Shown here one piece after another: positions 7,858 to 58,657 of a stretch of 64,000 nt of DNA. The notes under the pieces are model-generated. The model was not told where the DNA came from, did not search any database, and worked only from the letters and a program-made list of their open reading frames with translations. Numbering within the stretch: the first letter of the stretch is position 1; the number at the start of each line of letters is the position of its first letter. Made by a program: the position numbers and the translations under genes. The stretch is from Candidatus Omnitrophota bacterium (GTDB lineage Bacteria; Omnitrophota; Omnitrophia; Omnitrophales; JACROU01): assembly GCA_029261035.1 (NCBI GenBank), contig JAJDCD010000008.1, positions 162,313 through 226,312 of the forward strand, given 5' to 3'.

Positions 7858-7861
7858 AAAA

Positions 7862-19751: not shown

Positions 19752-19757
19752 TCAAGT

Positions 19758-20501: not shown

Positions 20502-20508
20502 AAAACCC

Positions 20509-22014: not shown

Positions 22015-22522
22015 GAGATGAGTTTTTTAAGGTTAGTTGATGATAACGTTTTTTTAATGCAGAAGGAACAATCGGAAACAACAATCCATAAGGTTCTCCA
22101 CCAAATAAATGATGAATACGATGAGAATGATAATGCCAAGAGAAAATATTTTTCTTTATACGAAAAAATGGGATTCTTCCATGAACCACAATATCATGAA
22201 TTAAAAAGTAAAGAAGCCCATATGCTGTAATACCAAAACCGAAAGAAATTAAATATTTCAAACTCGGAACAAAAATACCTAAAGCAATAACAGACATAGT
22301 TATTAAAGCTGAAATTCCTGGATAAAAATCATTCAGCTCCCACCCATTGCTCTTAGGAGCAAAATTATGAATCAGCTTTTTCTGGCCTTCTCTTCGATTA
22401 TGACTCGAATGATGACTGCGATGTAAAGGAACGCCAAATCCATGGAAGATGTAGCGATGAGACAAATAGGTGATAGGCTCCATAACAACTAAACCTAAAA
22501 AGAACAAATAGACCTCAACCAT
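22007..22522 (-). CDS. crtZ: Beta-carotene hydroxylase (fatty acid hydroxylase superfamily)
   Basis: 171 aa with four histidine boxes (HRYIFHG, HRSHHSSH, HDIVVHG, HSHRIHH) and membrane helices. Confidence 0.7.
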   Translation of the reverse strand: MVEVYLFFLGLVVMEPITYLSHRYIFHGFGVPLHRSHHSSHNRREGQKKLIHNFAPKSNGWELNDFYPGISALITMSVIALGIFVPSLKYLISFGFGITAYGLLYFLIHDIVVHGRIPFFRIKKNIFSWHYHSHRIHHLFGGEPYGLLFPIVPSALKKRYHQLTLKNSSHE

Positions 22523-23404: not shown

Positions 23405-23430
23405 ATCTATGGATTACACTCCTATAAACT

Positions 23431-24312: not shown

Positions 24313-25799
24313 AAATTAAAATCTTCCACGATACACTTATCCGTCGCCTCAGATGACAACAAGACGCCAGGCACGCCACCTCCAGGATGAGTACCCGCCC
24401 CAACAAAATAGAGACGCTCGATATCTTCACTGCGATTATGAGGTCTAAAATAAGCGCTTTGCATCAATCGGGGTTCAATAGCAAAAGCATTCCCTAAATG
24501 AGAGTTCAGTTTATTCTTAAAATCATCCGGTGTAAATACTTCCATCACCTCTATATTATCCTTCAGACCTTCCATCCCCATCTTTTCTTCTAAACGATCC
24601 AAAACTTTATTTGTAAAAGGCTCTATTTCTTTTTTCCAATCAATTCCACTTTTTAGATTAGGAACCGGAATCAACACATACAAACTTTCGCAACCCTTAG
24701 GAGCCATATTAGAATCACTTTTTGTTGGGGCATGTAAGTACATAGAAAACTCCTCAGGAATAATCTGCCGATCAAAAATATCTTTAACTAATTCTTTATA
24801 TTCTGAACCCAAAACAATCGTATGATGTTTCAGCTGAGGAAATTGTTTCTTAACACCCAAATAGAGCAAAACACAGCTCATGGTCATGTGAATTTTATCA
24901 ATTCGTTTATCTGTCCACTTTTTTCTCCATTTAGAATCAATCAGATTCTTGTATACAATAGGAATATCAGCATTACACACAACACAATCCGCCTTTAAAA
25001 CTTCGTTTTCTAGCTCAATTCCTCGAGCAACTCCATCTTCAACGACAATTTTCTTTACTTCCGTATGAGTCCTTACCGTCCCCCCTATTTCTTTAAAAAC
25101 AGATTCCATCGCTTTTACTAAACTATACATTCCCCCTTTCGCAAACCACACTCCTCCTACTTTTTCAAGATAAGGAATCATCACATAGACGCTAGGAGCC
25201 TTCCAAGGAGAACCTCCAATAAATAGCGGATGAAATGAAAACATAAACCGATGGAACTCATGTTTGAAATACTGAGCTGTAAAGGAATAAACAGGTAGGA
25301 AAGCTTTCAACTTGATTGCCTGTGGAGCAAACTTAAGCATAGAACCCCAACTCATAAAAGGCTGCGCTCCTAAACCATCCGTAATAATGGCATCATACAC
25401 CCCTTTAATATCCTTAAAAAAAGCATCGTAACGATCTGCGTCTCTTTGACTATAACAAGCCATTTGGGATTTAATATTTTCAGCATTCCCATTGTAATCA
25501 ATGTACTTACCATCACTAAAGTAGATTCTGTAATAAGGATCTAAGGACTCTAACTCAACATAATCTGAGAGTTTTTTTCCAGCCAAAGAAAAAAGCCGTT
25601 CTATAATAAAAGGAGCTGTAATTAAAGAAGGCCCCATATCAAAGGTGTAGCCTTCTTTCTTAAGTTGATAAGCCCGACCTCCAACCTGCTCTCTCTTTTC
25701 AACCAAAGTAACATCAAAACCTTTAGCTTGAAGACGAATCGCAGAAGACAGCCCTCCAAACCCCGCACCAATAACAATCGCTTTTTTTCTTTGTTCCAC
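24309..25799 (-). CDS. crtI: Phytoene desaturase
   Basis: 496 aa. Dinucleotide-binding site VIGAGFGGLSSA and the C-terminal FVGAGTHPGGGVPGVLLS. Confidence 0.85.
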   Translation of the reverse strand: MEQRKKAIVIGAGFGGLSSAIRLQAKGFDVTLVEKREQVGGRAYQLKKEGYTFDMGPSLITAPFIIERLFSLAGKKLSDYVELESLDPYYRIYFSDGKYIDYNGNAENIKSQMACYSQRDADRYDAFFKDIKGVYDAIITDGLGAQPFMSWGSMLKFAPQAIKLKAFLPVYSFTAQYFKHEFHRFMFSFHPLFIGGSPWKAPSVYVMIPYLEKVGGVWFAKGGMYSLVKAMESVFKEIGGTVRTHTEVKKIVVEDGVARGIELENEVLKADCVVCNADIPIVYKNLIDSKWRKKWTDKRIDKIHMTMSCVLLYLGVKKQFPQLKHHTIVLGSEYKELVKDIFDRQIIPEEFSMYLHAPTKSDSNMAPKGCESLYVLIPVPNLKSGIDWKKEIEPFTNKVLDRLEEKMGMEGLKDNIEVMEVFTPDDFKNKLNSHLGNAFAIEPRLMQSAYFRPHNRSEDIERLYFVGAGTHPGGGVPGVLLSSEATDKCIVEDFNL

Positions 25800-25959
25800 C
25801 AGAGACTCCTAATTGATTTAGAAAAACAGAAGAAATATCATATTTCTTACGAAAAAGAATTACAAGCAGATTCCTCACCTGAAAAATGGCAGCTCAGCCT
25901 CTTTATCCATGCTGAATAATTAGCTATTTATAGGAAAGAAGAAAAATAGGGATGTAGAC

Positions 25960-41104: not shown

Positions 41105-41443
41105 TTAACTCTTTTTTCTTTTATCTGATAGTTTCACACTTTGACTGATCCAACGCAAATACGATTCATCACCTTCACTCACATCTATCGCTAGAATCTC
41201 CGGAACGTCATAAGGATGAACTTGCTTCAAATACTTCATCAGTGCTTTCAATTTCGTCTGAGTTGTCTTTATGAACAAAAGAACTTCTGCAGAGCTCTCA
41301 ACTTTATTTTTCCACAAATAAAAGGATTGCCCCTTTGGAAAAGCATGAACACAGGCACATAAACGCTCCCTTAATAACTGCTTTGATACCTGCTCTGCTT
41401 TTTTCTGGTTAGGTAACGTGGAAAAGACGATTTTATACTTCAT
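41105..41443 (-). CDS. cutA: Divalent-cation tolerance protein CutA
   Basis: 112 aa. CVHAFPKGQSFYLWKNKV...HPYDVPEILAIDV is typical of CutA1. Confidence 0.75.
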   Translation of the reverse strand: MKYKIVFSTLPNQKKAEQVSKQLLRERLCACVHAFPKGQSFYLWKNKVESSAEVLLFIKTTQTKLKALMKYLKQVHPYDVPEILAIDVSEGDESYLRWISQSVKLSDKRKKS

Positions 41444-44243: not shown

Positions 44244-44271
44244 ATTAACTCACAACTTTCTTAAAATAGGG

Positions 44272-45090
44272 CTATGTTCCAATTTTCATTTTAGAGAAAA
44301 TTTTATTTAATGTAGCTGCCAAAGAATACTGTGCCAAAGCACTCGTTTTAGGGTTATCTTTTGAGGGGACATTCTCTGTAAAGGTATTAATGCGTCCAAA
44401 CTTTCCTTCTGCTGTTATCTCATGAGAGTTCGCTGTAAACTCAGGAGAAGTCAATACTTTAACTTTAACTTGCTCAGGGCCTAGCGTTGCCAAAGAAAGA
44501 ACAGCTGCAACATTAACATTTTGAGGGAAAGCTTTAACTGCTTCAGTAGCTGTTCCTTCAAAAATCATTTGCTCTGTTTGAATAGAATCTAGGTCGATTC
44601 CCTTTTCTATTAAAAAAGGAGCTCCTCTTAACCCTTCAATAGGTTTCCTTGTTGTTAAAGTGATTCTTTCTATTCCTTCTTGCATAGCTGCATTCAATGC
44701 ATCAATACCCGCTACAGCTCCCGAGGGAACAAATACTTGCCCCACAGAATTAAATAACAAATCCTTTAAGGAAGGAACGTCTAAAATCCCACCCACACTC
44801 ATAACTAAAATAAGTTTTCCGCTTTGCAACGACTTCTCTAACAATTCTGGAACGCAAGAAACATGAGCGGCTTCAATAATTAAATCAACATCCTCTAAAT
44901 GCTCGTTCCAGCTAGAAATAACTTCAACGCCTTGAGTCAATTCTATTTTCAACTTATCTGCGGCATTTAAATTGATATCACAAACCCACTGAAGCTTAGC
45001 TTTATCACCATAGTCTCTTTCAACAAGTCGAGCGATGTAACTCCCAATAGAGCCACAACCCACTAAACCTATACGGACTATACCTGACAC
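44272..45090 (-). CDS. Aspartate dehydrogenase-like NAD(P)-binding protein (NadX/DUF108 family)
   Basis: 272 aa. N-terminal Rossmann fold IGLVGCGSIGSYIA and size fit L-aspartate dehydrogenase. It overlaps panD by 13 bp. Confidence 0.5.
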   Translation of the reverse strand: MSGIVRIGLVGCGSIGSYIARLVERDYGDKAKLQWVCDINLNAADKLKIELTQGVEVISSWNEHLEDVDLIIEAAHVSCVPELLEKSLQSGKLILVMSVGGILDVPSLKDLLFNSVGQVFVPSGAVAGIDALNAAMQEGIERITLTTRKPIEGLRGAPFLIEKGIDLDSIQTEQMIFEGTATEAVKAFPQNVNVAAVLSLATLGPEQVKVKVLTSPEFTANSHEITAEGKFGRINTFTENVPSKDNPKTSALAQYSLAATLNKIFSKMKIGT

Positions 45091-45461
45091 GAAACTGTCT
45101 CTTCTTCAGATATTTTCGTAATACGGTTCTTCTCATCCACTCGAACTACTTTTGGACGATGAGAATCTATTTCTTCTTTTGTAAGGAGAGCAAAAGAAAT
45201 AATAATAGCAATATCCCCTTCATTCGCATGATGAGCGGCCGCTCCATTCATACAAATGACACCAGAACCTCTAGGACCCGGAATGCAATAAGTTTCCAAA
45301 CGAGAACCATTCGTTACATTAGCAACCAAAACCTTTTCCCAGTGAGCCATACCAGAAGCATCCATCAGATCCTCATCAATAGTAATACTACCTTCATACT
45401 CTAGATTTGTTTCTGTAATGGTTACACGGTGAATTTTAGAATTTAGTAATTGACGTTGCAT
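45078..45461 (-). CDS. panD: Aspartate 1-decarboxylase proenzyme
   Basis: 127 aa. LNSKIHRVTITETNLEYEGSITIDEDLMDASG (Gly-Ser self-cleavage site) and GSGVICMNGAAA. Confidence 0.9.
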   Translation of the reverse strand: MQRQLLNSKIHRVTITETNLEYEGSITIDEDLMDASGMAHWEKVLVANVTNGSRLETYCIPGPRGSGVICMNGAAAHHANEGDIAIIISFALLTKEEIDSHRPKVVRVDEKNRITKISEEETVSCQV

Positions 45462-45485
45462 GGTTTAAACAACCTCCAAATTAAT

Positions 45486-46328
45486 TTATTTTTTTATTAC
45501 TCGGTTATCTATCAGTCTTGTTTTTCCTAAAGTACAAGCTATTCCAAGTAAAATATCTCCAGTCACTTGTTTTATATTTTCCAAACTTTCAAGATCTAAT
45601 ATTTCAACATACTGGATTTTATCGACTACAGGCTCCAAAGATTTCTGAATATCTTTCTTCAACTGAGCCACATTCGTTTCTCCAGAACGGATCAACTGTT
45701 CTGCATATTCTAATGCCAGATAGATCATAGGCGCTTTTGCTCTTTGTAATTCGCTCAAATAGGCATTTCTAGAGCTCATCGCCAAACCATCCATCTCACG
45801 GATCGTTGGCAAAACTTCTAAGGCTAGGGGCATATTCAGATCCTTAACCATACGCTTCAAAATCACAGCTTGCTGATAATCCTTTTGCCCAAAATAGGCT
45901 TTTGTAGGCCGAACTAAATTAAATAATTTTGCAACAACAGTACAAACCCCATCAAAATGCCCTGCGCGAAACTGCCCACATAATCGCAGCCCTAACTTCC
46001 CTGCCTTTACTTCAGTCTGAAATCCTTTAGGATACATTTCAGTCACTTTTGGTAAAAAAAGAATATCTGCCTTTTCTTTCTTTAACAAACGTTCATCTTG
46101 AGCTAAGGTTCGCGGATATTTTTTAAAATCTTCTTTAGGACCAAATTGAGTTGGATTTACAAAAACACTAACAACAACTCGCTTATTCTTTTTTCTGGCA
46201 GTACGGACCAACGACAAGTGCCCTTCATGCAAAGCCCCCATTGTTGGGACAAAACCAATAGAGTGTGATTGTTTAGCTTGTCTCAAAGACCATGCTGTCA
46301 TTTCACTCAAAGAAACAATTTTTTTCAT
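45486..46328 (-). CDS. panC: Pantoate--beta-alanine ligase
   Basis: 280 aa. HIGH-like motif PTMGALHEGHLSLV. Confidence 0.85.
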   Translation of the reverse strand: MKKIVSLSEMTAWSLRQAKQSHSIGFVPTMGALHEGHLSLVRTARKKNKRVVVSVFVNPTQFGPKEDFKKYPRTLAQDERLLKKEKADILFLPKVTEMYPKGFQTEVKAGKLGLRLCGQFRAGHFDGVCTVVAKLFNLVRPTKAYFGQKDYQQAVILKRMVKDLNMPLALEVLPTIREMDGLAMSSRNAYLSELQRAKAPMIYLALEYAEQLIRSGETNVAQLKKDIQKSLEPVVDKIQYVEILDLESLENIKQVTGDILLGIACTLGKTRLIDNRVIKK

Positions 46329-46852
46329 TACACAGTCACTGGGGATTCAACGTTTTCTTTTTGCTTTTGAATAAATTCTTGAAGCTGAACATCCCCTAAC
46401 AAATCAATCAACAACTCCTGTACTGATTTCTTTGTTTTTGGATGAACCCAATCTTCATTGCATTCGTGCAAAGGTTTTAAAACAAATTCTCTCTGCTCAA
46501 TTCGAGGATGAGGTAACATCAACTCATCTTCCTCAATAACCTCTTCGTCATAGCAAAGCAAATCCAAATCTAAAGTCCTCGGTCCATTTTTCTCGACTCG
46601 TTTTCTGCCCAAACCCAATTCAATTCTCTGCAAATGACTTAATAACTCGAAGGCGCTAACTTCAGATTCCACCACCCAAACAGCATTCAAGTAAAGTCCT
46701 TGAGCAGGACCTCCATGAGGAAGAGTTTCGTAAATTGAAGACTCTTTCTTCCACGTTACACCAGGTATAGCCTTTATCTGATCTCTCGCTTTTTGAATGT
46801 ATTGCAGTCGATCCCCTAAATTAGAACCAACACCAATATAAGCTGTGGACAT
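46328..46852 (-). CDS. folK: 2-amino-4-hydroxy-6-hydroxymethyldihydropteridine pyrophosphokinase (HPPK)
   Basis: 174 aa. AYIGVGSNLGD N-terminus and RTLDLDLL. Confidence 0.85.
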   Translation of the reverse strand: MSTAYIGVGSNLGDRLQYIQKARDQIKAIPGVTWKKESSIYETLPHGGPAQGLYLNAVWVVESEVSAFELLSHLQRIELGLGRKRVEKNGPRTLDLDLLCYDEEVIEEDELMLPHPRIEQREFVLKPLHECNEDWVHPKTKKSVQELLIDLLGDVQLQEFIQKQKENVESPVTV

Positions 46853-46876
46853 AAGCAGCTTCCCTCATCTATATTT

Positions 46877-48049
46877 CTATTTTAAATTTTTAATACGCTC
46901 TACTGCTTCCTGCAACTTCTCTTTAGCCACCGTAACAGAAAAACGAATAAAACCTTCCCCATTCGGTCCAAATCCGTTTCCTGGGGTAACAACAATACCT
47001 GCATCTTTAAGTAACTTTGTTGTTAGCTCTGCACTGGTATAACCTGATGGAACTTTAGTCCAAATATAAAATGTTGCTTTAGGTTTATTAACTTTCCAGC
47101 CTATACTTTCAAGACCATCAACTAAAATATCTCTTCTTTCTTGATAAATATCAATATTATCTTGGACTGCTTGGTCACCCTCTTTCAAGGCTGTTGTTGC
47201 TGCTACTTGAATCGCCTGAAAAATTCCAGAATCACAATTCGCCTTCACCTTAGCAAGCAATTTCAAGATTTCTGGATTTCCAACAGCAAAACCAACACGC
47301 CATCCTGTCATATTGTATGTCTTAGAAAGAGAATGAAATTCAATCCCTACTTCTTTAGCACCTTTTGCTTGTAAAAAGCTAACAGGTTTATATCCATCAT
47401 AAGCCATTTCGGTATACGCCGCATCCTGAGCCACAATAATGTCATGCTCTTTCGCAAACTGAACAACCTCTTCATAAAACTCAAGAGTGGCACATGCCGC
47501 GGTTGGATTATTTGGGTAATTTAAAAACATCAATTTCGCTTGCTTCAATGCTGCAGGATCTATTGCTGAAAAATCAGGTAAAAAACCTTTTTCTTCAACC
47601 AAAGGAATCGTACTTGTTTCTGCTCCTGCAAAATAAGAAGCTGAATGATAAACTGGGTAACCAGGATCCGGAACTAACACAACATCTCCAGGGTTTACAA
47701 CAGCCAATGGGAGATGAGCAATTCCCTCTTTAGAACCAATCAAAGGTAATATCTCATTTTGAGTATCTACAGAAACACCAAAACGTCTTTGAAACCAAGA
47801 TGCAATTTCTTCTCTAAAGGAAGGCATCCCTGCATCAAGAGCATAACGATGATTCTTTGGGTCCTTAGCACCCTCATAAAGAGAATCAATAATAAAGTTA
47901 GGTGTTGGAATATCAGGGTCTCCCACGCCAAGATCAATAATATCAACACCCTGATCTCTAGCCTCTCTCTTAAGACGGTCAATCTCTGCAAATAAATAAG
48001 GGGGCAATTTCTTAATTCTGTCTGCTGCTTCAATAGTCAAAGTGGTCAT
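46877..48049 (-). CDS. Class-I aminotransferase, LL-diaminopimelate aminotransferase (DapL)-like
   Basis: 390 aa. N-terminus KLPPYLFAEIDRLKRE...IIDLGVGDPD and PLP-lysine region SLSKTYNMTGWRVGF. Confidence 0.55.
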   Translation of the reverse strand: MTTLTIEAADRIKKLPPYLFAEIDRLKREARDQGVDIIDLGVGDPDIPTPNFIIDSLYEGAKDPKNHRYALDAGMPSFREEIASWFQRRFGVSVDTQNEILPLIGSKEGIAHLPLAVVNPGDVVLVPDPGYPVYHSASYFAGAETSTIPLVEEKGFLPDFSAIDPAALKQAKLMFLNYPNNPTAACATLEFYEEVVQFAKEHDIIVAQDAAYTEMAYDGYKPVSFLQAKGAKEVGIEFHSLSKTYNMTGWRVGFAVGNPEILKLLAKVKANCDSGIFQAIQVAATTALKEGDQAVQDNIDIYQERRDILVDGLESIGWKVNKPKATFYIWTKVPSGYTSAELTTKLLKDAGIVVTPGNGFGPNGEGFIRFSVTVAKEKLQEAVERIKNLK

Positions 48050-48241: not shown

Positions 48242-51200
48242 TTAGGCTGCTATAAGGACCTTACGCATATTCTGCCATTCCTGAACAAGGTCTTGAAGAA
48301 TCTGAGGCAATAACAGTAAGGTGTTAGAATCACGGTCTCTTTGAAATAATTCCAGCAAAGCAGATCTGTTTTGAGCGACATAGAAAGAAGCTGCTAGATA
48401 AGCTCCACGATAATCAGAATCACGGCTAAATTTTTCTGCCTCAAACTGAATTCTTAAATCGCCTTCTTCCCAGTCTGCGGTGTTAAAAGAGTCATTCAAA
48501 AATACAGACTCTGCTAAATTAATTCCATTTGGAAAGTAAGGTCTTAAAAAGAACATCGATTTTTCTAAAAGGGCTTCAACATCTTTTGATAACATCTGTG
48601 TCATAGGTCGTTTCCACAAAAGAAGGGCAACCCGATAATCTTTCCAAAGACGCATCACACCTCCATACTCTCGAGCAATATCCGATATCTGATTTTTATC
48701 TGAAACTAAAAACACAACCATATTCGCTTTATTACCATCCCGCACATCCTCATCTCTTCGAGTTAACTCTTGTAATACTCCTTCTGTATTCGAATTCAAC
48801 TCCATAAAAATCGGAGTAAGATTTCTTTGCTCTTGAACAGAGTGAAGAATTACTTGAGCTTGCCCCAAACTTTGTCCTGTTGCAGCCGCTGCTTGTCCTG
48901 CATTCGAAAGCTGCCTTGAAATTTGTTGAAGCAGCATAGCCGTATGGTCTTGTGGGGTCCCAAACCCTAGAACACTCACATTCCTAAAGGAGTCAGAAGC
49001 TGTTTGAAAACGTGCGCGAACAGTACTGTTTCTTCTACCCACCAAAACATGCCGCCATCTTCCTGTTACAGCAAGAGCAAAGTTTAGATATGCTTTTTCT
49101 TCTTCTATCTTACTTGCTGCTAGAGCCGTTCGCACTTGTGTTCCTGTCATCTCTTCAGCAGCAGCATTTGCTCCGGTAATAATAAAAGAGTATCTAGCCG
49201 GAATCACTCTTCCAGACAGTTTCTCTGTCTTAAATATTTCAAGACCTCGAAACCAGTTTTTAGCGCGTAACAAACTTACTTGTTGCAAATTCTCATCAAC
49301 AATATCTCTTTCATCATTAATCCTCAAATCATAGTTAAGCGCTTTAAGAAAATGATGTTCTAAAGACATCCAAATACGAGCATCAGAAACTCCTGAGTAA
49401 TCGTTCTGATTAGAACTTCTAACTTTAGACCAAACAACTCTCATTTGTTGAAAAGCTCTTTCTGCTAATTCATTCGCTTCATTTGACCCCGTTTTATATA
49501 TATTAAAAGCCCTCTGGTCTGTTCTTAGTGCCTGTTCATCAATACTAGGAATATCAGACCACTTTGCATAAGCTTCTAACAAGTTAATATCCGCCAACAC
49601 CTTTAATGCTTGTATTTCAGCAAAACCTGCTGGGGTATTCACATCCCCCACAAATCCAATTCCACCTCTTGCTATTTGCTCACCAGACCCTGTTTTAATG
49701 ATTCTAATTTGAGCATCTGTTGCTCCCATACTTTTCATCCACTGCTCTATACGAGTTCGAGCTCCATCAAAATTATTATCCGCAGCTAAATAATACGCTT
49801 CCATAGGATAAGCTTTCTGAACCCAAGTAGATTGAGGATAAGCCGTCCTCAATGACTGCAACTCCGAAAGTGCTGTAGCATACTCACCGTTATATGCCGA
49901 TAAATGGGCTATTGCCCACAAATATTCTTGATGTTCTGCTGGAGTCAGTTGTTTGATTTCATTTTCAGTAGCTAGATTTTTAAGCGCTCTCACTTGCTCT
50001 AAATAATCATCAAGAGTTAAGTCGGATCTTAGTTTTTTCAGTAACGCTAATTTCACTTTAACGTGATAAAACCTAAGAAAAGAAAGATAAGCTCTATCTG
50101 AATGCACTGAAAAATGATTGCTAAATTGCCTATCAAAGCTTGTTAATGCATCCTTGTTAATAGAAGCATCCTCCAAGCCTTGTTTAACTAAAATCAAAAA
50201 TGAAACTAACCCTCTCAATTGTCGAACTTTTGTCTCAAGAGTTGTATCTTTTCCAATTAATTTATCTGACGCCTGATCTAACAAGTTTTTTGCATCTGCC
50301 CATTCCCCTGATTTAATTTTAACCTCAGCCTGAGCAATCAAAGCCCTACCTTCTTCAATTTGAGAGGCTCTTCTCTGTCTTTGAGCATCTAAAGCAATAC
50401 GCGCTTGATACTTCCTCCAACCTTCTGTTATCAAGTAAAACGCAGCCCCTCCAAGTAAAACAACAGACAGTAATGCCCCTAACACTAACTGCCCTCGTCT
50501 TTTTCTTAGACTTCTTTTTCTTTTATCTTTCTGCGCTTCCACATTACGATTTTCAAGAAAATTTTCAAGATCTTCTGCTAATTCAACAGCCGAAGGATAT
50601 CTACTCTCTTCACTTTTTTCCATCGTCTTAATAATTATTTCTTCTAAGTCTTTAGGTATTGCCGGGTTAATTTCACTAGGCCTTTTAAAATCATTAAGCA
50701 TAATTGCTGACATAAGCATTAAGGAAGAACTCGCAGTAAAAGGAAGCTGCCCCGTTAACATGTAATACAAAATAGCTCCTAACGCCCAAACATCGGTAGG
50801 TGCCTTTGCATCCCTAGCCAAACCCGTTGCTTGTTCTGGAGACATAAATGATGGAGTTCCTATGACAGCTCCTGTTCTTGTTAACTCCTCAGCTCTGGCC
50901 TTTGATGTCAACTTCGCCAAACCAAAATCTGTAACATAAGGAACACTCCCTTCCCCTAAAAGGATATTTTGAGGTTTTAGATCTCGATGAATAAAATCTC
51001 TTTTATGCACCCTTGCCATAGCTTCAACAATTTGTTTAAACAACACCGTTCTATCTCTAATAAGCTTCTCAGCTTCTTTTGATTTAGGTTTACTTGGAAT
51101 AATTTCCCCCTGATCTATCCACCGTCTTATTTGCTCTTCTAAATCCCCGCCCTCGACAAACTCCATAACAAAAAAGGGCTCTTCCTTGCCCTCTCTTAAT

Positions 51201-54200
51201 CGAACGTTGCCTACTGCGTAAATTTTAACAACTCCCATAAAATCTAGCTGTACCATTGATTCAGCTTCTTCTTTGAAACGTAACATTTCCTCAGCACCTG
51301 CGTGTTCAAGAAGTCGTTTTATTGCTACTTTTCTTCCTGTTTTAGATGCCCTAAAGTCCAACCCTTGGTACACAGCTCCCATACCCCCCTTAGCTAAAAA
51401 CTTCGTAATTCTAAACCTCCCTGCTTGTTGCTGATTAAATAAACGGACAAATCCATCCGTCTGCTGTAAATAAAGTGTATCTGGATCAACAGGACTCATC
51501 TTTGCCATTAACTTAGGTGAAACATCCCCAGGCTGAAGCCCTACTTGAGTTCTCCCTTCAGCAACCGTACCTCCAGACAAACTAGGAGAGACCACAGAAG
51601 TAGGCGCTCTCGCTATTACCATCCGATAGGATCTTCCATTAACATTGACATAAAAATCAGGATTCAAACCATTCGCATCCAGAACAATAAAAGGAGGATC
51701 AATGTTAGGCTTACTCCACTTCTCATTATTCTCAAAGGTCTGAAAATAGAATTGAAAAGTAGTTCCATTTAAAGGGATGGGTACAAAATATTGCGCTTGG
51801 ATGAAAGCTTGTTGAGCCTGTTGCAATAGAGAGACAACAGGACCTTTATTCAAAGCCGCATAAGCTTGACGATATTGCTCCAAGATTTCAACTGCTGTCT
51901 CAACAGGTTTATCTCCTAAACTCTGCGCTTCAACAGATCCTTCTTCTCTCCAAACTGTTAATAGATCTCCCATTAAATTCACATCATTAAATTGATCGGC
52001 AGCTTCTGCAAAAGCTGCTCCCTGAGTCGCTTTTTGCACCCAGCCTCTAAAACGTTTTACGCGCGCGGATGTTGGAATACCAGAAGTTAAATCAACTCTT
52101 CTCTGACGAATCACCCGCCCCAATAGTTGAAAGTAAGTTTTAGGATCACTCGATAACTCTTCATCTCCCTTTACCGTTCTTAACAACAATCGAATATCAG
52201 AAAGTCTTTCTTTATTTTCATCACTCAGTTGATTAAAACTACTTAACAAGCGTCCTAATTGCCGACTGGAGTTAGAAGCTATATTCGATTGCTCTCTTGC
52301 CCCATTAGACAAGTTGCCCAAATCACCCATTAAGGCCTCAATGCCGATAGAATAATCAAGCCCTGCCAAAAATGCTAAACGTAAATTTCTGATTTGAGCA
52401 GGGTTATTTGAATTTCCAGAGGATTGAATAATGGCTAAAATACTAGCCTGTAATGACTGAGAGTAATAATCTTCTATTTGTCGAGAAAGCTCCCTTTTCT
52501 TACCATACAAAGCTCCCAGTTCAGAGCTTGGATGCCCTTGTCCTGGAGTCCAACTTCCAGATCGACCATCAGGTTCTAAAATTTGTCTATAACGTCTCAT
52601 AGTAATCAACTGCTCAAGAACATATGTATCTAAAATAGCGCGTCTTAGTTTTAAACGATTCACTGGATCTGAATTTTGCAAATCAACCGCCTGTAAACCT
52701 TGACGTGCAGTTTCAAATTGAGCATTTTCCCCACCAATTGCTTTCATCAGTCTAATTCGAGCTATAAGTAAATGAGAAGAAGTCATCAAATTAGAAGATG
52801 CAAATCGAGATTGGAAATCCGACAGAGTTGTCAATGAAGCATCCAAACTTCCCATTCGATATTGGATAGTCGCTTTCTTCCAAGTATTAGCTTCATTCGT
52901 AGCATTTGCTGAATTAGAAATTTCTCGCAGAGCCAAAGCATACATATGGTTGGATAATGAAACATTGTTTTTTTCACCAGGCAACCTCAAAAGAAAACCC
53001 AGGCTTTCAAATAAACTAATTTTATCTGTGCCCGTTGTTCCTTGAAACAAATCAGAAGAAGAGAAATCTGATGATGATGGCCTGGTTGATTGAGTTAATA
53101 AAAATGATAGTCGATCAGCTATTAAACTTAACACACCTTCATTTAAACCTTTATTTAATTGAACAGACTGACTTGACTTGGATAACAAAATACGAGCAAG
53201 ACGATTAAAACGAGTTTTATCGGTATCATTTAAATCACCATATCGACTCGCAACTATATTTAAATCATTGAACGCTTGAGAAATATCGGGACTCTGTTTT
53301 TTTAACTCAGTATCTGCTGACTTAAAATTTACGCCAATTTGCTGAGTTCTTAAAGATGTGATTACTTCTTGAACCCTTGCTTTTAACGCAGCAGAAAATA
53401 GAGGCACTTCTTTAAAAGTATCTATCAAGGCTAAAATACGACTTACATCCGCAGGACGAGCAGAGTCTCCCTTTTTAATCTCTGCATCTGCTTGCTGCAA
53501 CGCCGTAACTAACTGTCTCATACTTAAAACCTTCGCATCTAACCGAGGCCTTTCTCCAGAATTAATACTTCGAGCATCATCAATTAGTTTTATTGCATCA
53601 TCATACCTTCTATCCAAAATTGCTTGTTCTGCATCATTAATATGATCTGCTTTTAACGTTAACTCTTGATTCCTTTGATAGTCCTTATACATAGAGCTCC
53701 CAATAGAAAAAGCGCCTAACATAGCTAGAGTAACAATTGCAGCTGCCAAGATTCCCGCAACAGCTTTATTTCTCTGAATTAACTTTTGTAATCGATAAAA
53801 AAGACCTTGGTTTTTAACTGCTTGAACAGGTTGGTTATTCAACCAACGGTCTAAATCGTCTGCCAACTCACTTGCAGATTGATAACGATCTGAAGGTTGC
53901 TTTTCTAATGCTTTTAAAATAATTGCTTCGATTTCTTTTGAAACCTTAGAGTTTTGACTTCGAATTGGAGTTGGATTCTGCATTGAAATAGCAGTTAAAA
54001 CAGCCGTCAATGAAGGCCCTGAAAATGGATACTCTTTGGTTAAAGACTTATAAAGCATTCCCCCTAAAGCCCAAACATCTATGCGATGATCAATTTCTGT
54101 AGATTTATTAATTTGTTCGGGAGCCATGTAAACAGGTGTTCCCAATATATCTCCTGTTCGAGTTAAAGCTTCTTCACTATTCACTAAATGCGCTAAACCG

Positions 54201-56818
54201 AAATCAGCAATCTTAGTAGAACCATCATTAGCAATAATCACATTAGCAGGTTTTAAATCACGATGGATCACCCCTGCTTTATGAGCCTTATCTAAAGATC
54301 GTGCAACATCTCTAATAATCCGAACTCTTTCTCTTAACACTTCATCTGATGTTGGAACAGGAGATTCCATAATCACATCCCTAAAATCTTCACCTTCAAC
54401 AATGTCCATTGCATAGAAAGGCCTAAGACCATATTGAGGATGTTGAACTTGTCCAATAAATCGAGATTGAACAATTCCGGGGTCATTTACTTGAGCCGCC
54501 GCTTGTGCTTCTCGTTTAAAACGAATAAACGACTCTGCATCGATAGCAGCTTCAAATGGAATCACTTTTACAGCTGATTGCCTTGGAGTTCCTGGGATTC
54601 TCAAATCCACCGCTTCATAAACAACCCCCATAGCTCCTCTTCCCAACTCTCGTATTAATCTAAACTGAGGTACCTGTTGAGAAAACAACTGAACCATCGC
54701 ATCTCCCGATGGAGGCAATTCGCTTTGATTTAAAGGAAGAGTTCCAGTTCCTTGTCTTTCTGTTCTACTTACAGAGTCTGCAGCAACCTGCACATCCGTG
54801 ATTGCCGTCAATTTAAAATGATAACCATCGATAGTCACATGATTCGTTCTAGGATCCTGTCGCAACAAAATATCTTGAACTTGCCTACCTGGTTGAATTT
54901 GAGGAGACTTCCAAGTGTTACCTTGGTAAATCTGAACAATAAAATCCATTACTTGACCTTGGAAGTTAATTCTAAACGGCTGACCTAATGGATCAATTGA
55001 TTCTCTATTTCGTCGATCTCTTACATTGCGAACCAACTCTTGCATAACCTCCATCCAAAAAGCATCTTGCATATTTTGGCCATAAGTCATGATGATTTTT
55101 TCAAACATGACATCACGAGAATCACTTTCAATGCCCAAAGATGCAGCCACAGCTTCTGGAACATCATAGTACGGCAAAGCTCCGATTTGAGTTGCCGCAG
55201 CTTCCAGCTTGAATGCAGGATCATCTAACCGAGGCTCTAATTTAACCGTTCCTGTTGCTGGATTTATAATTTGATTTAAAGACACTTCTTGCTTAGCCAA
55301 CAATTCCCAATACGGAGATGTGTCCCAATCAGGATCCGCAATCGGTGTCATCACCCAATAAGAAATATCTTTGTCTTTTAACCGCTTCGCAATCCCTTCG
55401 GTATGGAAACCACCTGCAACAACAAAAATAATTTTCTGCTTGGTGTTTTTTAATAGTTTTTCGATGTTTTGGGATAATGCTTCATCCCTTTTGTAAACAT
55501 ATTCATAATATTGAAAAGCAGAAGACATTAAAGAAATCATACGAAGCATTACAGGGTCACTTCTAAAAGTAAAACCTCGACGTTCAAATAGGTCATCTAA
55601 GGACTGCCACCAAACCTTTGTTTGGATAATATCCATACGAGACATCAGCTCTTGATAGTGCTTGTTCTCTAATTCCAAACGAGACAACTTGTCTAAAAGC
55701 ATAAAGTCTCGATCCACCTGAATCAGCATTCTTTCGTCACGAGAACGAGCTAGAAGTGGGTAAAGCTTCTTTTCTAAGCGCTCTAATTGCTCAAAAAAGT
55801 CACTCGATGCCAATACATCCATTTCTTTTTGAAACTTGATCCAACGAGCAAAAACCTTATTTTCATTTTTAAGACCTTCTGACTGTTGATTCCAAAAAGA
55901 ATTTACTCTTAGCATCCATTGAGATTCTGGTTCGTCAACACCTCTGATCATCCCCCATTCGCTCAAAAGTGCTTTAATTCGTTTTTGATCTAATTTACTC
56001 TCCTCTTGAAACAATAGAGACATTTGCTCAATTGCTGGATACAGATTTAAACTTACTCCCTTTTCTGTAGATAGTTGAATTAAAAGCCTTAGATAGACTC
56101 TTAACTGATTTACATCTTTTTCAAATTGGTCTTTAATTTGTTCTACATCTCGAAGTTGTTTGGAGTAGACTTGATTTTTAAGGCGGTTTACTTCTAATTT
56201 CGTATTTTCTATGGCTTTAACAACTGAAAACTGATGGTCTAAAAAGGAGCGATAGGCACTCACATTTTTCTGGTACAAATTCTTACTATCAATCCCCCAC
56301 AATTTAGCTTTTCGATTATTGTTTATTGCGTAATACTGGGCACCATCAATCTTGCCATCCCACATAAAAGAGTTCGTAACATCTCGGGTAATTTCCGGAA
56401 CAGGAAAAGCGGTGAAAATCAAAGGGTTAATTTCTTCCGGACCACTTCCTTCAAGACCAATCGTAATCTCTTCAGAAAGCCCCATAGAAACAAGCTTGTC
56501 TTCAAAGTAATCCAGTGTAGAAATAATATTTTGTTGGGCTTGAAAATTGGCATGAGCTTCTTGCAACAAAACCACAAGAGGATAGTCCCCTAAAGGTTTT
56601 TCTTCTGTCTCCGGAGACATCCAGAAAGATTCTCTATCGACTATCTCATTAGATAACCCACTCAAAAAAGATTGAGGAGAAACTAAAGTAGGAGCACCCA
56701 TCATCGGGTTTGCTTTTGCAGGTAAAGGTATAAATACGGAAGTAACAACAAAGCAAATCAGAACGACTAAAGATGTAAAGAATTGAAAACTCTTATGCTT
56801 CAAAATTAAAACCTCCAT
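48242..56818 (-). CDS. Giant (2858 aa) membrane protein: N-terminal hydrophobic segment, TraB/GumN-like domain, then two tandem Ser/Thr protein kinase modules, each followed by a TM segment and a long helical (TPR-like) region
   Basis: GumN/TraB motifs LVVLLQEAHAN (aa ~81-91) and IIFVVAGGFHTEGI (aa ~463-476). Kinase 1 (aa ~718-985): GRGAMGVV, AVKVI, HRDLKPANV, DFG, YMAPE, DVWALG. TM 2 (aa ~1019-1043). Kinase 2 (aa ~1801-2085): AKGGMGAV, VAIKRL, HRDLKPQN, DFG, FMSPE, DVWALG. TM 3 (aa ~2110-2130). Confidence 0.85.
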   Translation of the reverse strand: MEVLILKHKSFQFFTSLVVLICFVVTSVFIPLPAKANPMMGAPTLVSPQSFLSGLSNEIVDRESFWMSPETEEKPLGDYPLVVLLQEAHANFQAQQNIISTLDYFEDKLVSMGLSEEITIGLEGSGPEEINPLIFTAFPVPEITRDVTNSFMWDGKIDGAQYYAINNNRKAKLWGIDSKNLYQKNVSAYRSFLDHQFSVVKAIENTKLEVNRLKNQVYSKQLRDVEQIKDQFEKDVNQLRVYLRLLIQLSTEKGVSLNLYPAIEQMSLLFQEESKLDQKRIKALLSEWGMIRGVDEPESQWMLRVNSFWNQQSEGLKNENKVFARWIKFQKEMDVLASSDFFEQLERLEKKLYPLLARSRDERMLIQVDRDFMLLDKLSRLELENKHYQELMSRMDIIQTKVWWQSLDDLFERRGFTFRSDPVMLRMISLMSSAFQYYEYVYKRDEALSQNIEKLLKNTKQKIIFVVAGGFHTEGIAKRLKDKDISYWVMTPIADPDWDTSPYWELLAKQEVSLNQIINPATGTVKLEPRLDDPAFKLEAAATQIGALPYYDVPEAVAASLGIESDSRDVMFEKIIMTYGQNMQDAFWMEVMQELVRNVRDRRNRESIDPLGQPFRINFQGQVMDFIVQIYQGNTWKSPQIQPGRQVQDILLRQDPRTNHVTIDGYHFKLTAITDVQVAADSVSRTERQGTGTLPLNQSELPPSGDAMVQLFSQQVPQFRLIRELGRGAMGVVYEAVDLRIPGTPRQSAVKVIPFEAAIDAESFIRFKREAQAAAQVNDPGIVQSRFIGQVQHPQYGLRPFYAMDIVEGEDFRDVIMESPVPTSDEVLRERVRIIRDVARSLDKAHKAGVIHRDLKPANVIIANDGSTKIADFGLAHLVNSEEALTRTGDILGTPVYMAPEQINKSTEIDHRIDVWALGGMLYKSLTKEYPFSGPSLTAVLTAISMQNPTPIRSQNSKVSKEIEAIILKALEKQPSDRYQSASELADDLDRWLNNQPVQAVKNQGLFYRLQKLIQRNKAVAGILAAAIVTLAMLGAFSIGSSMYKDYQRNQELTLKADHINDAEQAILDRRYDDAIKLIDDARSINSGERPRLDAKVLSMRQLVTALQQADAEIKKGDSARPADVSRILALIDTFKEVPLFSAALKARVQEVITSLRTQQIGVNFKSADTELKKQSPDISQAFNDLNIVASRYGDLNDTDKTRFNRLARILLSKSSQSVQLNKGLNEGVLSLIADRLSFLLTQSTRPSSSDFSSSDLFQGTTGTDKISLFESLGFLLRLPGEKNNVSLSNHMYALALREISNSANATNEANTWKKATIQYRMGSLDASLTTLSDFQSRFASSNLMTSSHLLIARIRLMKAIGGENAQFETARQGLQAVDLQNSDPVNRLKLRRAILDTYVLEQLITMRRYRQILEPDGRSGSWTPGQGHPSSELGALYGKKRELSRQIEDYYSQSLQASILAIIQSSGNSNNPAQIRNLRLAFLAGLDYSIGIEALMGDLGNLSNGAREQSNIASNSSRQLGRLLSSFNQLSDENKERLSDIRLLLRTVKGDEELSSDPKTYFQLLGRVIRQRRVDLTSGIPTSARVKRFRGWVQKATQGAAFAEAADQFNDVNLMGDLLTVWREEGSVEAQSLGDKPVETAVEILEQYRQAYAALNKGPVVSLLQQAQQAFIQAQYFVPIPLNGTTFQFYFQTFENNEKWSKPNIDPPFIVLDANGLNPDFYVNVNGRSYRMVIARAPTSVVSPSLSGGTVAEGRTQVGLQPGDVSPKLMAKMSPVDPDTLYLQQTDGFVRLFNQQQAGRFRITKFLAKGGMGAVYQGLDFRASKTGRKVAIKRLLEHAGAEEMLRFKEEAESMVQLDFMGVVKIYAVGNVRLREGKEEPFFVMEFVEGGDLEEQIRRWIDQGEIIPSKPKSKEAEKLIRDRTVLFKQIVEAMARVHKRDFIHRDLKPQNILLGEGSVPYVTDFGLAKLTSKARAEELTRTGAVIGTPSFMSPEQATGLARDAKAPTDVWALGAILYYMLTGQLPFTASSSLMLMSAIMLNDFKRPSEINPAIPKDLEEIIIKTMEKSEESRYPSAVELAEDLENFLENRNVEAQKDKRKRSLRKRRGQLVLGALLSVVLLGGAAFYLITEGWRKYQARIALDAQRQRRASQIEEGRALIAQAEVKIKSGEWADAKNLLDQASDKLIGKDTTLETKVRQLRGLVSFLILVKQGLEDASINKDALTSFDRQFSNHFSVHSDRAYLSFLRFYHVKVKLALLKKLRSDLTLDDYLEQVRALKNLATENEIKQLTPAEHQEYLWAIAHLSAYNGEYATALSELQSLRTAYPQSTWVQKAYPMEAYYLAADNNFDGARTRIEQWMKSMGATDAQIRIIKTGSGEQIARGGIGFVGDVNTPAGFAEIQALKVLADINLLEAYAKWSDIPSIDEQALRTDQRAFNIYKTGSNEANELAERAFQQMRVVWSKVRSSNQNDYSGVSDARIWMSLEHHFLKALNYDLRINDERDIVDENLQQVSLLRAKNWFRGLEIFKTEKLSGRVIPARYSFIITGANAAAEEMTGTQVRTALAASKIEEEKAYLNFALAVTGRWRHVLVGRRNSTVRARFQTASDSFRNVSVLGFGTPQDHTAMLLQQISRQLSNAGQAAAATGQSLGQAQVILHSVQEQRNLTPIFMELNSNTEGVLQELTRRDEDVRDGNKANMVVFLVSDKNQISDIAREYGGVMRLWKDYRVALLLWKRPMTQMLSKDVEALLEKSMFFLRPYFPNGINLAESVFLNDSFNTADWEEGDLRIQFEAEKFSRDSDYRGAYLAASFYVAQNRSALLELFQRDRDSNTLLLLPQILQDLVQEWQNMRKVLIAA

Positions 56819-57147: not shown

Positions 57148-57224
57148 TGGCGCGCCCGAGTGGATTCGAACCACTGACCCTTTGCTTAGAAGGCAAATGC
57201 TCTATCCAACTGAGCTACGGGCGC
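57148..57224 (-). tRNA. tRNA-Arg (anticodon TCT), 77 nt, CCA encoded
   Basis: Hand-folded: acceptor GCGCCCG/CGGGCGC, anticodon stem TTTGC/GCAAA, loop CTTCTAA, T-arm AGTGG-TTCGAAT-CCACT. Confidence 0.9.
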
Positions 57225-57363: not shown

Positions 57364-58191
57364 CTAAGAAAAGTCTACCAACTTATAAATCTCAATATTT
57401 TTCATAAAAGCTTCAGACTGTGACATTGTATTATCAGAATCAGACATAATACCAATTGCTTTTAAATTTTTGGTGGGCTTTTTACCAAACAAAAACTCAT
57501 AGTCCTTACGAATATCTCTCATCTCTCTTACCCACTCTTGAGGGTCCTCAGCAGAAGACTTTTGAACAACAAACGCTTTAACACGTTTTGTATAAGGGCT
57601 AGCAGAATAAGTCCCCTCTTCAAAATGATCATCCCAAACATATTGAATAATATCAGAAGTGAAAATAGTCTTACCTTCAAATATGGCATAAATTCTTAAA
57701 GGGTAATCATTGTCTAATTTCGAAGCGAATTTTTTATTTTTCTTATTAGAAGGAAATTCGGTTACCTTCCATTTCCATACCAAAATAGGGTTCTTTTCAA
57801 TATCTATATTTACTTTTCTAAATATTCCCGAAGAGGTCCCTCGGCTTGATGATTTAAGAACATTCTCACCTGTTTCATCCGAAGAAATTTCATATAAACT
57901 CTCCCCTTTAAATTTCTGGTGTCTCCACTCCTGAATATCCTTATCTTTTAGAAATTTAAATTCAACTAACCGTTTCAACTGATCTTCTGTATAAGGAAAT
58001 TGTTCATCTGGAAGTACAATTGTTTTGCTCGGAATTAGAGTCATGAAAGAGAATGGGTCAAAGAAATAAAGGACACTCCCCACAAGTGCCATAGAACAAA
58101 TAATCACATTCAGAGCGAGAAAACGCTTCGATCTCCAAAATGGTTTTTTTTCAGACATGTAAACTAGCCTTTCCAAGAAAGAAATGAGCAA
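57364..58191 (-). CDS. Membrane-anchored hypothetical protein, possibly DUF3047-like
   Basis: 275 aa. N-terminal TM (FLALNVIICSMALVGSVLYFF), Trp-containing core (ILVWKWKVTEF) and C-terminal GIMSDSDNT. The family call is by recollection only. Confidence 0.3.
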   Translation of the reverse strand: MLISFLERLVYMSEKKPFWRSKRFLALNVIICSMALVGSVLYFFDPFSFMTLIPSKTIVLPDEQFPYTEDQLKRLVEFKFLKDKDIQEWRHQKFKGESLYEISSDETGENVLKSSSRGTSSGIFRKVNIDIEKNPILVWKWKVTEFPSNKKNKKFASKLDNDYPLRIYAIFEGKTIFTSDIIQYVWDDHFEEGTYSASPYTKRVKAFVVQKSSAEDPQEWVREMRDIRKDYEFLFGKKPTKNLKAIGIMSDSDNTMSQSEAFMKNIEIYKLVDFS

Positions 58192-58249: not shown

Positions 58250-58657
58250 CTAGACCTTCTTTGCCCTAGACGCATTATCAGGAGCATCTTTAAATCCAGA
58301 GCCTGGCGCATAGGCTACCTTTTTAAATCCATCACCATCCTTGTGGATAATGTCTTTCCAACCATTCTTCCATTCAACATAAGCTTTTGCATTTTTAAAT
58401 TCCCAGCTTCCTTCTTCTCCATTTTTCCAGTTACTAACTGCTGTGCCATCTTCCTTTAAGTTAATCAAGAAATTCTTTCCTTCAGAATCCGCAACTTCCC
58501 ACTGACCGACATACTGAACCCTCTCAACCTTCTTCTCTTTTGGATTTCCTTGCTGTTGTTGTAAAAAAATGGGATTAATAAAACCCTGAGCAAAGAGATT
58601 CGAACTTAGAAAGAATGTTATCAAGATAATTGAAGTTGAGATATTAAAAAGTTTCAT
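58250..58657 (-). CDS. Small secreted Trp/Lys-rich hypothetical protein
   Basis: 135 aa. Signal peptide, then repeated WK/WE motifs (GQWEVAD, SNWKNGEEGSWEFKNAKAYVEWKNGWKD). Confidence 0.35.
   Translation of the reverse strand: MKLFNISTSIILITFFLSSNLFAQGFINPIFLQQQQGNPKEKKVERVQYVGQWEVADSEGKNFLINLKEDGTAVSNWKNGEEGSWEFKNAKAYVEWKNGWKDIIHKDGDGFKKVAYAPGSGFKDAPDNASRAKKV

Follow-up and report, generated by a model that had tools for sequence, protein, structure and literature searches.

A two-kinase membrane protein of an Omnitrophota bacterium with a conserved conflict of sorting signals: possibly a polyprotein

Introduction

Receptor-type Hanks kinases of bacteria, such as PknB, PrkC and the kinase-TM-TPR proteins of Acidobacteriota and Planctomycetota, follow a simple order: kinase domain, basic juxtamembrane stretch, single transmembrane (TM) helix and large C-terminal domain. 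The protein described here, encoded in a 64,000-nucleotide stretch of an Omnitrophota genome (the window), has this order twice. It differs from the PknB/PrkC type in that a single chain holds two such units, preceded by a signal peptide and a hydrolase-like domain of 525 aa; in having an extra beta-rich domain before each kinase, SLG joints between its parts and a dedicated C-terminal domain (CTD); and in having no PASTA repeats, a Pfam search of the protein finding none and matching the tail of the second unit to TPR_14 only.

Omnitrophota are also the source of giant proteins, described as 'Archaeovorins' (West-Roberts et al. 2023, bioRxiv 10.1101/2023.11.21.568195) and in a long-protein catalogue (bioRxiv 10.64898/2026.06.07.730766). 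Both preprints remark on a localisation paradox, which our protein shares: enzyme domains of cytoplasmic type share a chain with a signal peptide, TM helices or both. Cleavage of those proteins, too, is suspected. The giants reach tens of thousands of amino acids and have many TM helices, whereas the present protein has 2858 aa and three hydrophobic segments; it lacks peptidase domains of the C39 or S8 type and carries Hanks kinases as cargo. The TIKI-like N-terminal domain (NTD), the SLG joints and the C-terminal tail motif described below are mentioned in neither preprint.

MARTX-type toxins and viral polyproteins offer a second comparison, since they too have constant ends around exchangeable enzyme cassettes and a short recurring junction motif suggesting processing. 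Unlike MARTX, our protein shows no CPD autoprotease, RTX repeats or T1SS signal in a Pfam search; and unlike both, its cassettes bear their own membrane anchors, and cleavage is putative.

The NTD itself belongs with the TIKI/TraB/PrgY/ChaN/erythromycin-esterase superfamily (Tiki1, RRSP, HopBA1, EreB/C, ChaN), among whose members Tiki and RRSP are site-specific endopeptidases. Tiki1 acts on Wnt3a by removal of 'eight amino-terminal residues', the cut reportedly falling after '...SL'.

Results

A single gene in a conserved position

The open reading frame occupies 48242..56818 of the window on the reverse strand (as do all features below) and specifies 2858 aa plus a stop codon from an ATG start. 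A TTG at codon 6, with GGAGG 7 nt upstream, is the likelier start and would give a protein beginning MKHKSFQFF. An independent database record, P0001, is 100% identical to the product. The gene lies upstream of dapL-folK-panC-panD-nadX-uvrA; these neighbours are housekeeping genes, and no secretion-system genes were found linked to the locus.

Three orthologues (P0002, P0003 and P0004) occupy the same syntenic position in other assemblies, each as one open reading frame with its parts in the same order. P0004, from an Omnitrophota MAG, has a single cassette between an NTD and a CTD like those of the query; a paralogue, P0005, has the same end domains around two kinase-less cassettes. All 15 loci found by scanning the genome collection with the NTD patterns are in Omnitrophota MAGs. 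The internal duplication resembles tandem paralogues, and the first-pass annotation of this DNA had allowed for a lost stop codon between them. That two or three adjacent genes were joined in assembly or annotation, by such a loss or by a frameshift, can be practically dismissed: base composition is even along the whole open reading frame, the independent record is identical, and the syntenic P0002 and P0003 have two kinase-TM cassettes within one open reading frame, on which ground we reject the artefact. The 2858-aa protein is real, and one gene of an uncultured Omnitrophota bacterium encodes it. Identity among orthologues is 28-32%, against 50-77% for the neighbouring genes; the gene evolves fast, as surface and interface proteins often do.

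Two paralogous kinase cassettes between constant ends

The chain consists of a signal peptide, a TIKI-fold NTD, two paralogous kinase cassettes and a Rossmann-like CTD. The first-pass annotation had recorded neither the signal peptide nor the CTD, nor the pairing of the cassettes, the kinase 1 unit included. Each cassette comprises a small beta domain, a Hanks kinase, a basic juxtamembrane stretch, one hydrophobic helix and a helical/TPR domain of ~500-600 aa; the two are 32% identical (E 4e-56) and share the kinase-TM-helical order. Cassette 1 opens with a helix and beta-rich domain (aa 563-715, 54674..55132), with a counterpart ahead of kinase 2 and others in the P0005 cassettes that lack a kinase. 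It continues with kinase 1 (aa 716-1005, 53804..54673), the second hydrophobic segment (aa 1019-1044, 53687..53764) and a helical domain free of hydrophobic segments (aa 1045-1635, 51914..53686); neither the pre-kinase domain nor the helical domain matched Pfam. Cassette 2 repeats the series: helix and beta-rich domain (aa 1636-1798, 51425..51913), kinase 2 (aa 1799-2100, 50519..51424), the third hydrophobic segment (aa 2111-2131, 50426..50488) and a helical/TPR domain (aa 2132-2652, 48863..50425).

The order kinase, TM, helical tail proposed earlier for the kinase 2 unit holds for both cassettes. Its tail had also been called helical/TPR, which a TPR_14 match (E 3.5e-5) partly bears out; the suggested HMM search for sensor domains after each TM yielded this match behind the third segment and nothing in Pfam for the corresponding part of cassette 1. 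A search with the full cassette for stand-alone versions returned generic kinases only, covering at most 47% of the query; the closest outside relatives are ordinary kinase-TM-TPR proteins of ~1200 aa. An extra SLG-bounded cassette in P0002 was considered as a NUDIX hydrolase, for which Pfam gave no support.

The CTD (aa 2653-2858, 48245..48862) has a Rossmann-like alpha/beta fold and ends in a family-type tail, ...KVLIAA. A local HMM search placed it only in P0001-P0005, and no stand-alone or wider homologues appeared in a search that seems to have reached proteins of roughly query length only.

Both kinases had been described as complete, with all catalytic hallmarks, and this holds, save that the first glycine of the kinase 2 G-loop is alanine. 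The Pfam Pkinase model (PF00069) matches two stretches, aa 720-981 and ~1804-2082, with 269 bits where the cut-off is 31.7. Kinase 1 has G726-R-G-A-M-G-V-V, K751 (AVKV), E770, HRDLKPAN (852-859), DFG (872-874) and APE (899-901); kinase 2 has A1809-K-G-G-M-G-A-V, VAIK (1831-1834), E1851, HRDLKPQN (1944-1951), DFG (1964-1966) and SPE (1993-1995). As judged from these motifs, both Hanks domains are intact in their catalytic residues. Compared for dating of the duplication, the kinase domains share 28-44% identity; those of the second cassettes cluster loosely with the P0004 kinase, and query kinase 1 is unplaced.

An N-terminal domain shared with thousands of Omnitrophota proteins

The NTD (aa 37-562, 55133..56710) has a TIKI/ChaN/EreA/TraB-superfamily fold, and its structural neighbours include the effectors HopBA1 and RRSP. 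It differs from known members in a helical insertion of ~280 aa, in subthreshold scores against PF04187 and PF01963 (E 0.098 and 0.38; 13 and 11 bits), confined to the C-terminal GxxH region, and in its setting, which is always the N-terminal end of a very long multi-domain protein, behind the signal peptide. A sequence search of PDB with the NTD profile gave chance helical matches only. Conserved are [D/E]87-x-H89, E123 and H472 (D/E51, H53, E87 and H436 in the numbering of the NTD piece), of which H89, E123 and H472 are invariant. RRSP and Ere enzymes have a 2His/2Glu set (PMC6254334), and the NTD residues match it as ExH ... E ... GxxH (RRSP E3900/H3902/E3930/H4030), by motif order and not by superposition.

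This domain defines a family with more than 10,000 representatives and no Pfam entry, found mostly in Omnitrophota giant proteins with cytoplasm-type enzyme cargo; membership in so large a signal-peptide-led family had escaped the first-pass annotation. An N-terminal hydrophobic segment is present in 168 of 176 members (mean n-region charge +3.3, median h-region 13 aa), a -3/-1 site in 157, and no further hydrophobic segment in 126 of 177. The cargo seen includes REC, HD, PPDK, RelA/SpoT, radical SAM, PGM, UDPGP, epimerase, DnaJ and helicase domains; in one member, P0278, a kinase directly follows the NTD with no TM in between. The paradox of a signal peptide leading cytoplasm-type cargo is general across the family.

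Three hydrophobic segments of one polarity

The earlier count of only three strong hydrophobic segments is matched on two scales. Kyte-Doolittle windows of 19 aa exceed 2.3 in three places (aa 14-32, 1019-1037 and 2112-2130) and nowhere else rise above 1.25; on a Hessa-type summed scale these segments score -0.5, -1.1 and -1.1, and the next best, inside kinase 2, +5.5. Between aa 1044 and 2109 neither scale offers a fourth TM candidate, and the orthologues show no extra hydrophobic segment on either. An overlooked membrane pass, raised beforehand as a way out of the topological problem, is thus not found in the query or in any orthologue, and on these two scales we reject a hidden TM.

The first segment belongs to a Sec-type signal peptide or signal anchor (aa 1-36, 56711..56818). 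It resembles a Sec signal peptide in its K/H/K n-region and AKA|NP site; its h-region (aa 13-34), at 22 aa, is unusually long. Behind the kinases, the helices of the query and orthologues have 4-9 K/R on their N-flanks and 2-5 on their C-flanks; in the query the N-flank of segment 2 has 4 K/R and 0 acidic residues, and that of segment 3 has 9 K/R in 15 aa. All three segments, by basic signal-peptide n-region or K/R-rich N-flank, thus carry N-in signals. For the kinases, flank charges favour the cytoplasm in both cases, and for kinase 1 the upstream signal peptide contradicts this. The topological conflict is real and conserved.

SLG at the joints

The tripeptide SLG closes the NTD and every cassette: S560-L561-G562 at the end of the NTD (55133..55141), S1633-L-G1635 at the end of cassette 1 (51914..51922) and S2650-L-G2652 at the end of cassette 2 (48863..48871). 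Among the five relatives P0001-P0005 it stands at 15 of 15 module ends, once as ALG. Serine is encoded by both AGY and TCN, and leucine and glycine by several codons each. Such free variation points to selection on the peptide and not on RNA, and an RNA-level role of SLG, for instance in internal initiation or in RNA processing, is rejected accordingly. Nor is SLG the junction of the whole family, its 43 occurrences in 28 wider relatives comparing with 39 expected, which is no enrichment. In an AF2 model of the CTD, SLG falls at the start of the first helix; it could therefore be a structural helix cap retained through duplication instead of a cleavage site.

Discussion

We favour, with a probability of about 40%, the reading that the protein is a polyprotein cut at SLG, both kinases being left in the cytoplasm. 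The joints would be broken, possibly by the TIKI-like NTD, and the chain would not be one alternately threaded protein: each piece would obey its own single N-in/C-out signal. The NTD piece would be exported, each cassette would insert as an ordinary receptor Ser/Thr kinase with its kinase in the cytoplasm and its helical/TPR domain outside, and the CTD would remain inside. Both kinases would thereby meet ATP, and one gene would supply two sensor kinases and two accessory domains. Processing had been among the options of the first-pass annotation, and though putative it is the best supported of them. It is favoured by the common polarity of the hydrophobic segments; by the duplication of a standard kinase-TM-sensor unit; by SLG or ALG at all 15 module ends, kept at the peptide level; by the presence of one cassette in P0004 and two in the query, P0002 and P0003 between constant end domains; by the TIKI-superfamily fold of the NTD with its invariant H, E and H and conserved D/E-x-H; and by the independent suspicion that Omnitrophota giant proteins are cleaved. 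The conserved His and acidic residues make the NTD a candidate in-chain protease. Several points tell against the polyprotein reading. Cytoplasmic polyprotein processing is rare in bacteria. An NTD exported unfolded through Sec could not act as a folded cytoplasmic protease, and with only a joint between it and kinase 1, either translocation would have to coincide with or follow the cut, or a different enzyme would have to make it. And since the wider family has the same paradox without any enrichment of SLG, cutting there cannot solve it in general.

If the chain is instead threaded uncut, the signal peptide exports NTD and kinase 1, which becomes an extracytoplasmic Hanks kinase, segment 2 acts as stop-transfer, leaving helical domain 1 and kinase 2 in the cytoplasm, and segment 3 re-exports the TPR domain and CTD. 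The signals taken at face value give this reading, and family data speak for it: signal peptides are classical across the NTD family, cargo must travel with the NTD in the 126 of 177 members that have no other hydrophobic segment, and the kinase of P0278 has no TM between it and the NTD. Published topology predictions, too, label many Omnitrophota long proteins SP+TM or SP-only, and fast evolution such as that of this gene is often seen in surface or interface proteins. Yet segment 2 would violate the positive-inside rule in the query, P0002 and P0003 alike, and uncut threading would flip the CTD, placing it outside in the query but inside in single-cassette P0004, though the end domains are the same. 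All family cargo seen is of cytoplasmic type, and kinase 1 keeps every ATP-dependent catalytic residue, while ATP is not known to occur in the periplasm; the kinase would be active only with ATP at hand, for instance at a host or prey interface. Given three N-in signals, and a cassette number that varies while the end domains stay constant, use of the chain uncut, with alternating topology, is unlikely. The earlier proposal that the two kinases lie on opposite faces of the membrane is upheld as to the conflict of sorting signals, which is conserved, and its corollary, one periplasmic Hanks kinase, is not established.

Another reading has the whole protein exported as a secreted or host-directed effector whose helices insert into a target membrane instead of the membrane of the producer, after the manner of multi-effector toxins. 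The signal peptide and the constant ends around variable enzyme cargo fit this, as do the effectors HopBA1 and RRSP among the structural neighbours of the NTD and the predatory or parasitic lifestyle, with a surface role for giant proteins, proposed for Omnitrophota. SecYEG, however, normally releases strongly hydrophobic segments of 20-26 residues sideways, and these, at KD ~2.4, would be expected to leave laterally and not to pass; with the housekeeping surroundings of the gene and the lack of CPD and RTX matches, this makes export of the whole protein improbable. Less probable again, and very doubtful in our view, is that the first segment is no export signal, so that NTD and kinase 1 are cytoplasmic, and helical domain 1 and kinase 2 outside. 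The positive-inside rule would then hold for segment 2, and the long h-region of the query also counts in favour, but signal-peptide features are conserved family-wide, segment 3 would be inverted despite the strongest basic N-flank (9 K/R), kinase 2 would end up outside, and the CTD would still change side between orthologues.

Bacterial Hanks kinases are usually assumed to be cytoplasmic, and membrane proteins to switch sides at each hydrophobic helix. With three signals of the same direction in one conserved chain, one such rule, or that of one gene, one polypeptide, must give way. The two preprints on Omnitrophota giant proteins raise the question of whether these are cut into pieces and where, relative to the membrane, their 'cytoplasmic' enzymes act. 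The present protein, compact, with three segments, three joints and orthologues of one or two cassettes, is a tractable test case for it, and the NTD family, with its unannotated TIKI-like domain and conserved C-terminal tail, gives a sequence handle. It is possible, though we think it rather unlikely, that kinase 1 and the nucleotide-dependent cargo of thousands of signal-peptide-led relatives are exported and work outside the cytoplasm of the producer. If so, kinase 1 would be a Hanks kinase active outside the cytoplasm, whether in the periplasm or where the cell meets host or prey, and the family would be a large and so far undescribed system in which ultra-small Omnitrophota export 'cytoplasmic' biochemistry.

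One gene with two kinases and three hydrophobic segments

The giant ORF (48242-56818, minus strand; 2858 aa) encodes two separate Pfam protein-kinase domains, at aa 720-981 and ~1804-2082, with 269 bits in total. Judged by its motifs each keeps the full catalytic set: G726RGAMGVV, K751, E770, HRDLKPAN (852-859), DFG (872) and APE (899) in the first, K1; A1809KGGMGAV, VAIK (1831-1834), E1851, HRDLKPQN (1944-1951), DFG (1964) and SPE (1993) in the second, K2. On the Kyte-Doolittle scale aa 14-32, 1019-1037 and 2112-2130 score 2.35-2.51, the next best window being 1.25; on a Hessa-type scale the same segments score -0.5 to -1.1 and the next best +5.5. Only these three segments (1, 2 and 3) reach predicted membrane-spanning hydrophobicity. 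Pfam, motifs and the two hydropathy scales thus uphold the first-pass annotation in its description of two complete kinases and three strong hydrophobic segments. Translation probably begins at the TTG of codon 6, 7 nt downstream of a GGAGG; the product would then open with MKHKSFQFF..., matching the K/R-rich starts of the orthologues; the annotated ATG (56801-56818, minus strand) has a poor spacer. The N-terminus has the look of a Sec signal, with an n-region of MKHK type, a hydrophobic core and an AKA|NP site.

The public collection holds an identical protein (NCBI contig, 466 kb). Its best relatives, P0002 (3431 aa), P0003 (2797 aa) and P0004 (1698 aa), are each encoded directly upstream of dapL-folK-panC-panD-aspartate dehydrogenase-uvrA, as is our protein in the window, and so count as positional orthologues. 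P0002 and P0003 are single ORFs with two kinase-TM units, P0004 has one, and no orthologue carries an extra hydrophobic segment between kinases. Neither of the escapes considered earlier, a stop codon lost between tandem paralogues or an overlooked membrane pass between the kinases, is thus borne out, such a pass being absent from our protein also, and an artefact is scarcely credible as explanation of the giant ORF. Identity among orthologues is 28-32% for the giant protein and 50-77% for its neighbours (41433-48049) across three other genomes, so the former evolves fast, much faster than the latter.

The dapL-uvrA block downstream is conserved among orthologues, unlike the upstream neighbourhood, which holds AbiE toxin-antitoxin genes (locus L001), WD40/LRR giant genes (L002, carrying P0002) or a HisKA_7TM kinase with REC (L003). 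In the window a tRNA-Arg(TCT) gene (57148-57224, minus strand) lies directly upstream of the giant ORF; between it and a YihY-family gene there are ORFs of 275 and 135 aa (57364-58191 and 58250-58657, both minus strand), neither with an NCBIfam match. All 44 of the window's 44 gene-like ORFs of at least 120 aa are on the minus strand, and GC skew is negative throughout the stretch profiled, 44-60 kb, a picture that would fit a single long stretch of co-oriented replichore.

Domains and cassettes

The N-terminal domain (aa 37-562; 55133-56710, minus strand) proved in a first search to be common to dozens of proteins of 1.7-4.9 kaa, and the genome loci recovered with its patterns are all from Candidatus Omnitrophota MAGs. 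No Pfam-A model exists for it; the ChaN and TraB models match faintly (E 0.1-0.4), over their last 45 positions. Alignment of 24 sequences shows H53, Q59, E87, G88, R408, G433, G434 and H436 to be invariant and D/E51 conserved, an order, D/E-x-H ... E ... GGFH, that matches by motif the catalytic 2His/2Glu set reported in RRSP and the Ere enzymes (PMC6254334). The AlphaFold model is confident (pLDDT 84.9), and predicted fold and conserved His/Glu place the domain in the TIKI/ChaN/EreA superfamily.

Residues 706-1107 and 1788-2208 are 32% identical (E 4e-56) over kinase, hydrophobic helix and about 60 residues more. They belong to two cassettes of the same order: short helix, beta-rich domain, kinase, basic stretch, helix, and a helical domain of ~500-600 aa, TPR-like in cassette 2. 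The C-terminal domain (aa 2653-2858), modelled confidently as a Rossmann-like alpha/beta fold (pLDDT 87.3), is shared only with P0002-P0004 and P0005, a kinase-less paralogue from the same assembly as P0004, both being annotated as Omnitrophica. At its own locus P0005 is flanked by ORFs of 14,531 and 3,664 aa (1-8065 and 16263-25859), both cut by the locus end; very long genes are thus clustered in this genome.

Incompatible topology signals and conserved SLG joints

In every orthologue each post-kinase helix is preceded by 4-9 K/R within 15 residues and followed by 2-5; ordinary receptor kinases, among which the cassette has its best outside matches, share this arrangement. All three hydrophobic segments carry N-in signals, and since three such signals follow one another, one uncut chain cannot obey them all. 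Cassette number varies between orthologues and the terminal domains are constant, so that alternate threading of an uncut chain would leave the C-terminal domain on one side of the membrane in P0004 and on the other in our protein.

The motif [A/G/E]-x-S-L-G closes the N-terminal domain and every cassette (aa 560-562, 1633-1635 and 2650-2652). The equivalent boundaries of P0001-P0005, P0001 being the identical database entry, comprise 15 junctions, 14 SLG and one ALG. Their codons differ freely (Ser AGT/AGC/TCT/TCG; Leu TTG/TTA/CTC/CTT; Gly all four), which places the constraint on the peptide. P0005 has two kinase-less cassettes with SLG joints, and P0002 an extra cassette of ~280 aa (aa 2935-3217), lacking a hydrophobic segment, with SLG at both ends; by eye it contains a NUDIX-box-like stretch, yet it has no Pfam match. 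As SLG opens the first helix in the C-terminal-domain model, its role may be structural.

Signal peptides before cytoplasm-type cargo across the family

An HMM built on the N-terminal domain matched 10,228 representatives of sequence clusters at E <= 1e-3 (7,240 with E <= 1e-30). The best 150 of these 10,228 matches, proteins of ~500-5,568 aa, all have the domain N-terminally, after a signal peptide, its start falling at about aa 4-130. Among 177 sampled members an N-terminal hydrophobic segment was present in 168/176; the n-region charge averaged +3.3, the uncharged core had a median length of 13 aa, and 157 showed a -3/-1 site. By these crude criteria the N-termini look like classical cleavable signal peptides. 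No further TM-grade segment occurs in 126/177. The cargo seen is all cytoplasm-type: REC, HD, PPDK_N, PGM, UDPGP, RelA/SpoT, HAD, radical SAM, UDP-glucose dehydrogenase, glycosyl- and methyltransferases, DnaJ, helicase and NAD-epimerase. Because signal peptides precede such cargo, the conflict raised by the first-pass annotation, which put the kinases on opposite membrane faces, is not peculiar to this protein but runs through the family. The puzzle has been described in general terms, and cleavage suspected, in two preprints about giant proteins of Omnitrophota (bioRxiv 10.1101/2023.11.21.568195; 10.64898/2026.06.07.730766), both of which are silent on TIKI-like domains and on Hanks kinases.

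C-termini are mostly small/aliphatic, -SL in 54/177, then -AA, -SA, -AL and -SV. The tail, an amphipathic helix followed by small/aliphatic last residues, is conserved in family members P0012-P0324 (here ...KVLIAA; 48245-48300, minus strand) and resembles the internal ...xSL(G) joints. It looks like a recognition signal, perhaps for a PDZ protease or docking site.

Possible explanations

We propose, with a probability of roughly 40%, that the chain is broken at the SLG joints and its pieces sorted separately: each released piece would obey its own sorting signal, the TIKI-like N-terminal domain being the candidate protease. This putative cleavage is preferred because it would leave no sorting signal violated, give both kinases the ATP they require and fit the comparison of orthologues. 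Tiki1 takes eight residues, reportedly SYPIWWSL, off the N-terminus of Wnt3a, which would place its cut after 'SL'; by analogy this might be a lead for SLG cleavage, though no test of it. Against cleavage at SLG, a Sec-exported N-terminal domain cannot double as a folded cytoplasmic protease, and since the wider family shows no SLG enrichment, the paradox in its general form must be resolved in some other way.

The main rival, the default topology in which K1 is exported together with the N-terminal domain, fits the family's signal peptides and P0278, a family member that also has a kinase directly after this domain, but segment 2 would then break the positive-inside rule and the C-terminal domain would change sides from one orthologue to another; we consider it unlikely. 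Export of the whole protein, directed at a host, seems less probable again, and a non-functional signal peptide very doubtful.

The literature searched gives no description of these features combined: two kinase-TM cassettes, predicted active, in one conserved chain, an SLG junction grammar, a constant TIKI-like head and a C-terminal tail. The protein offers a compact experimental handle on the puzzle of Omnitrophota giant proteins.
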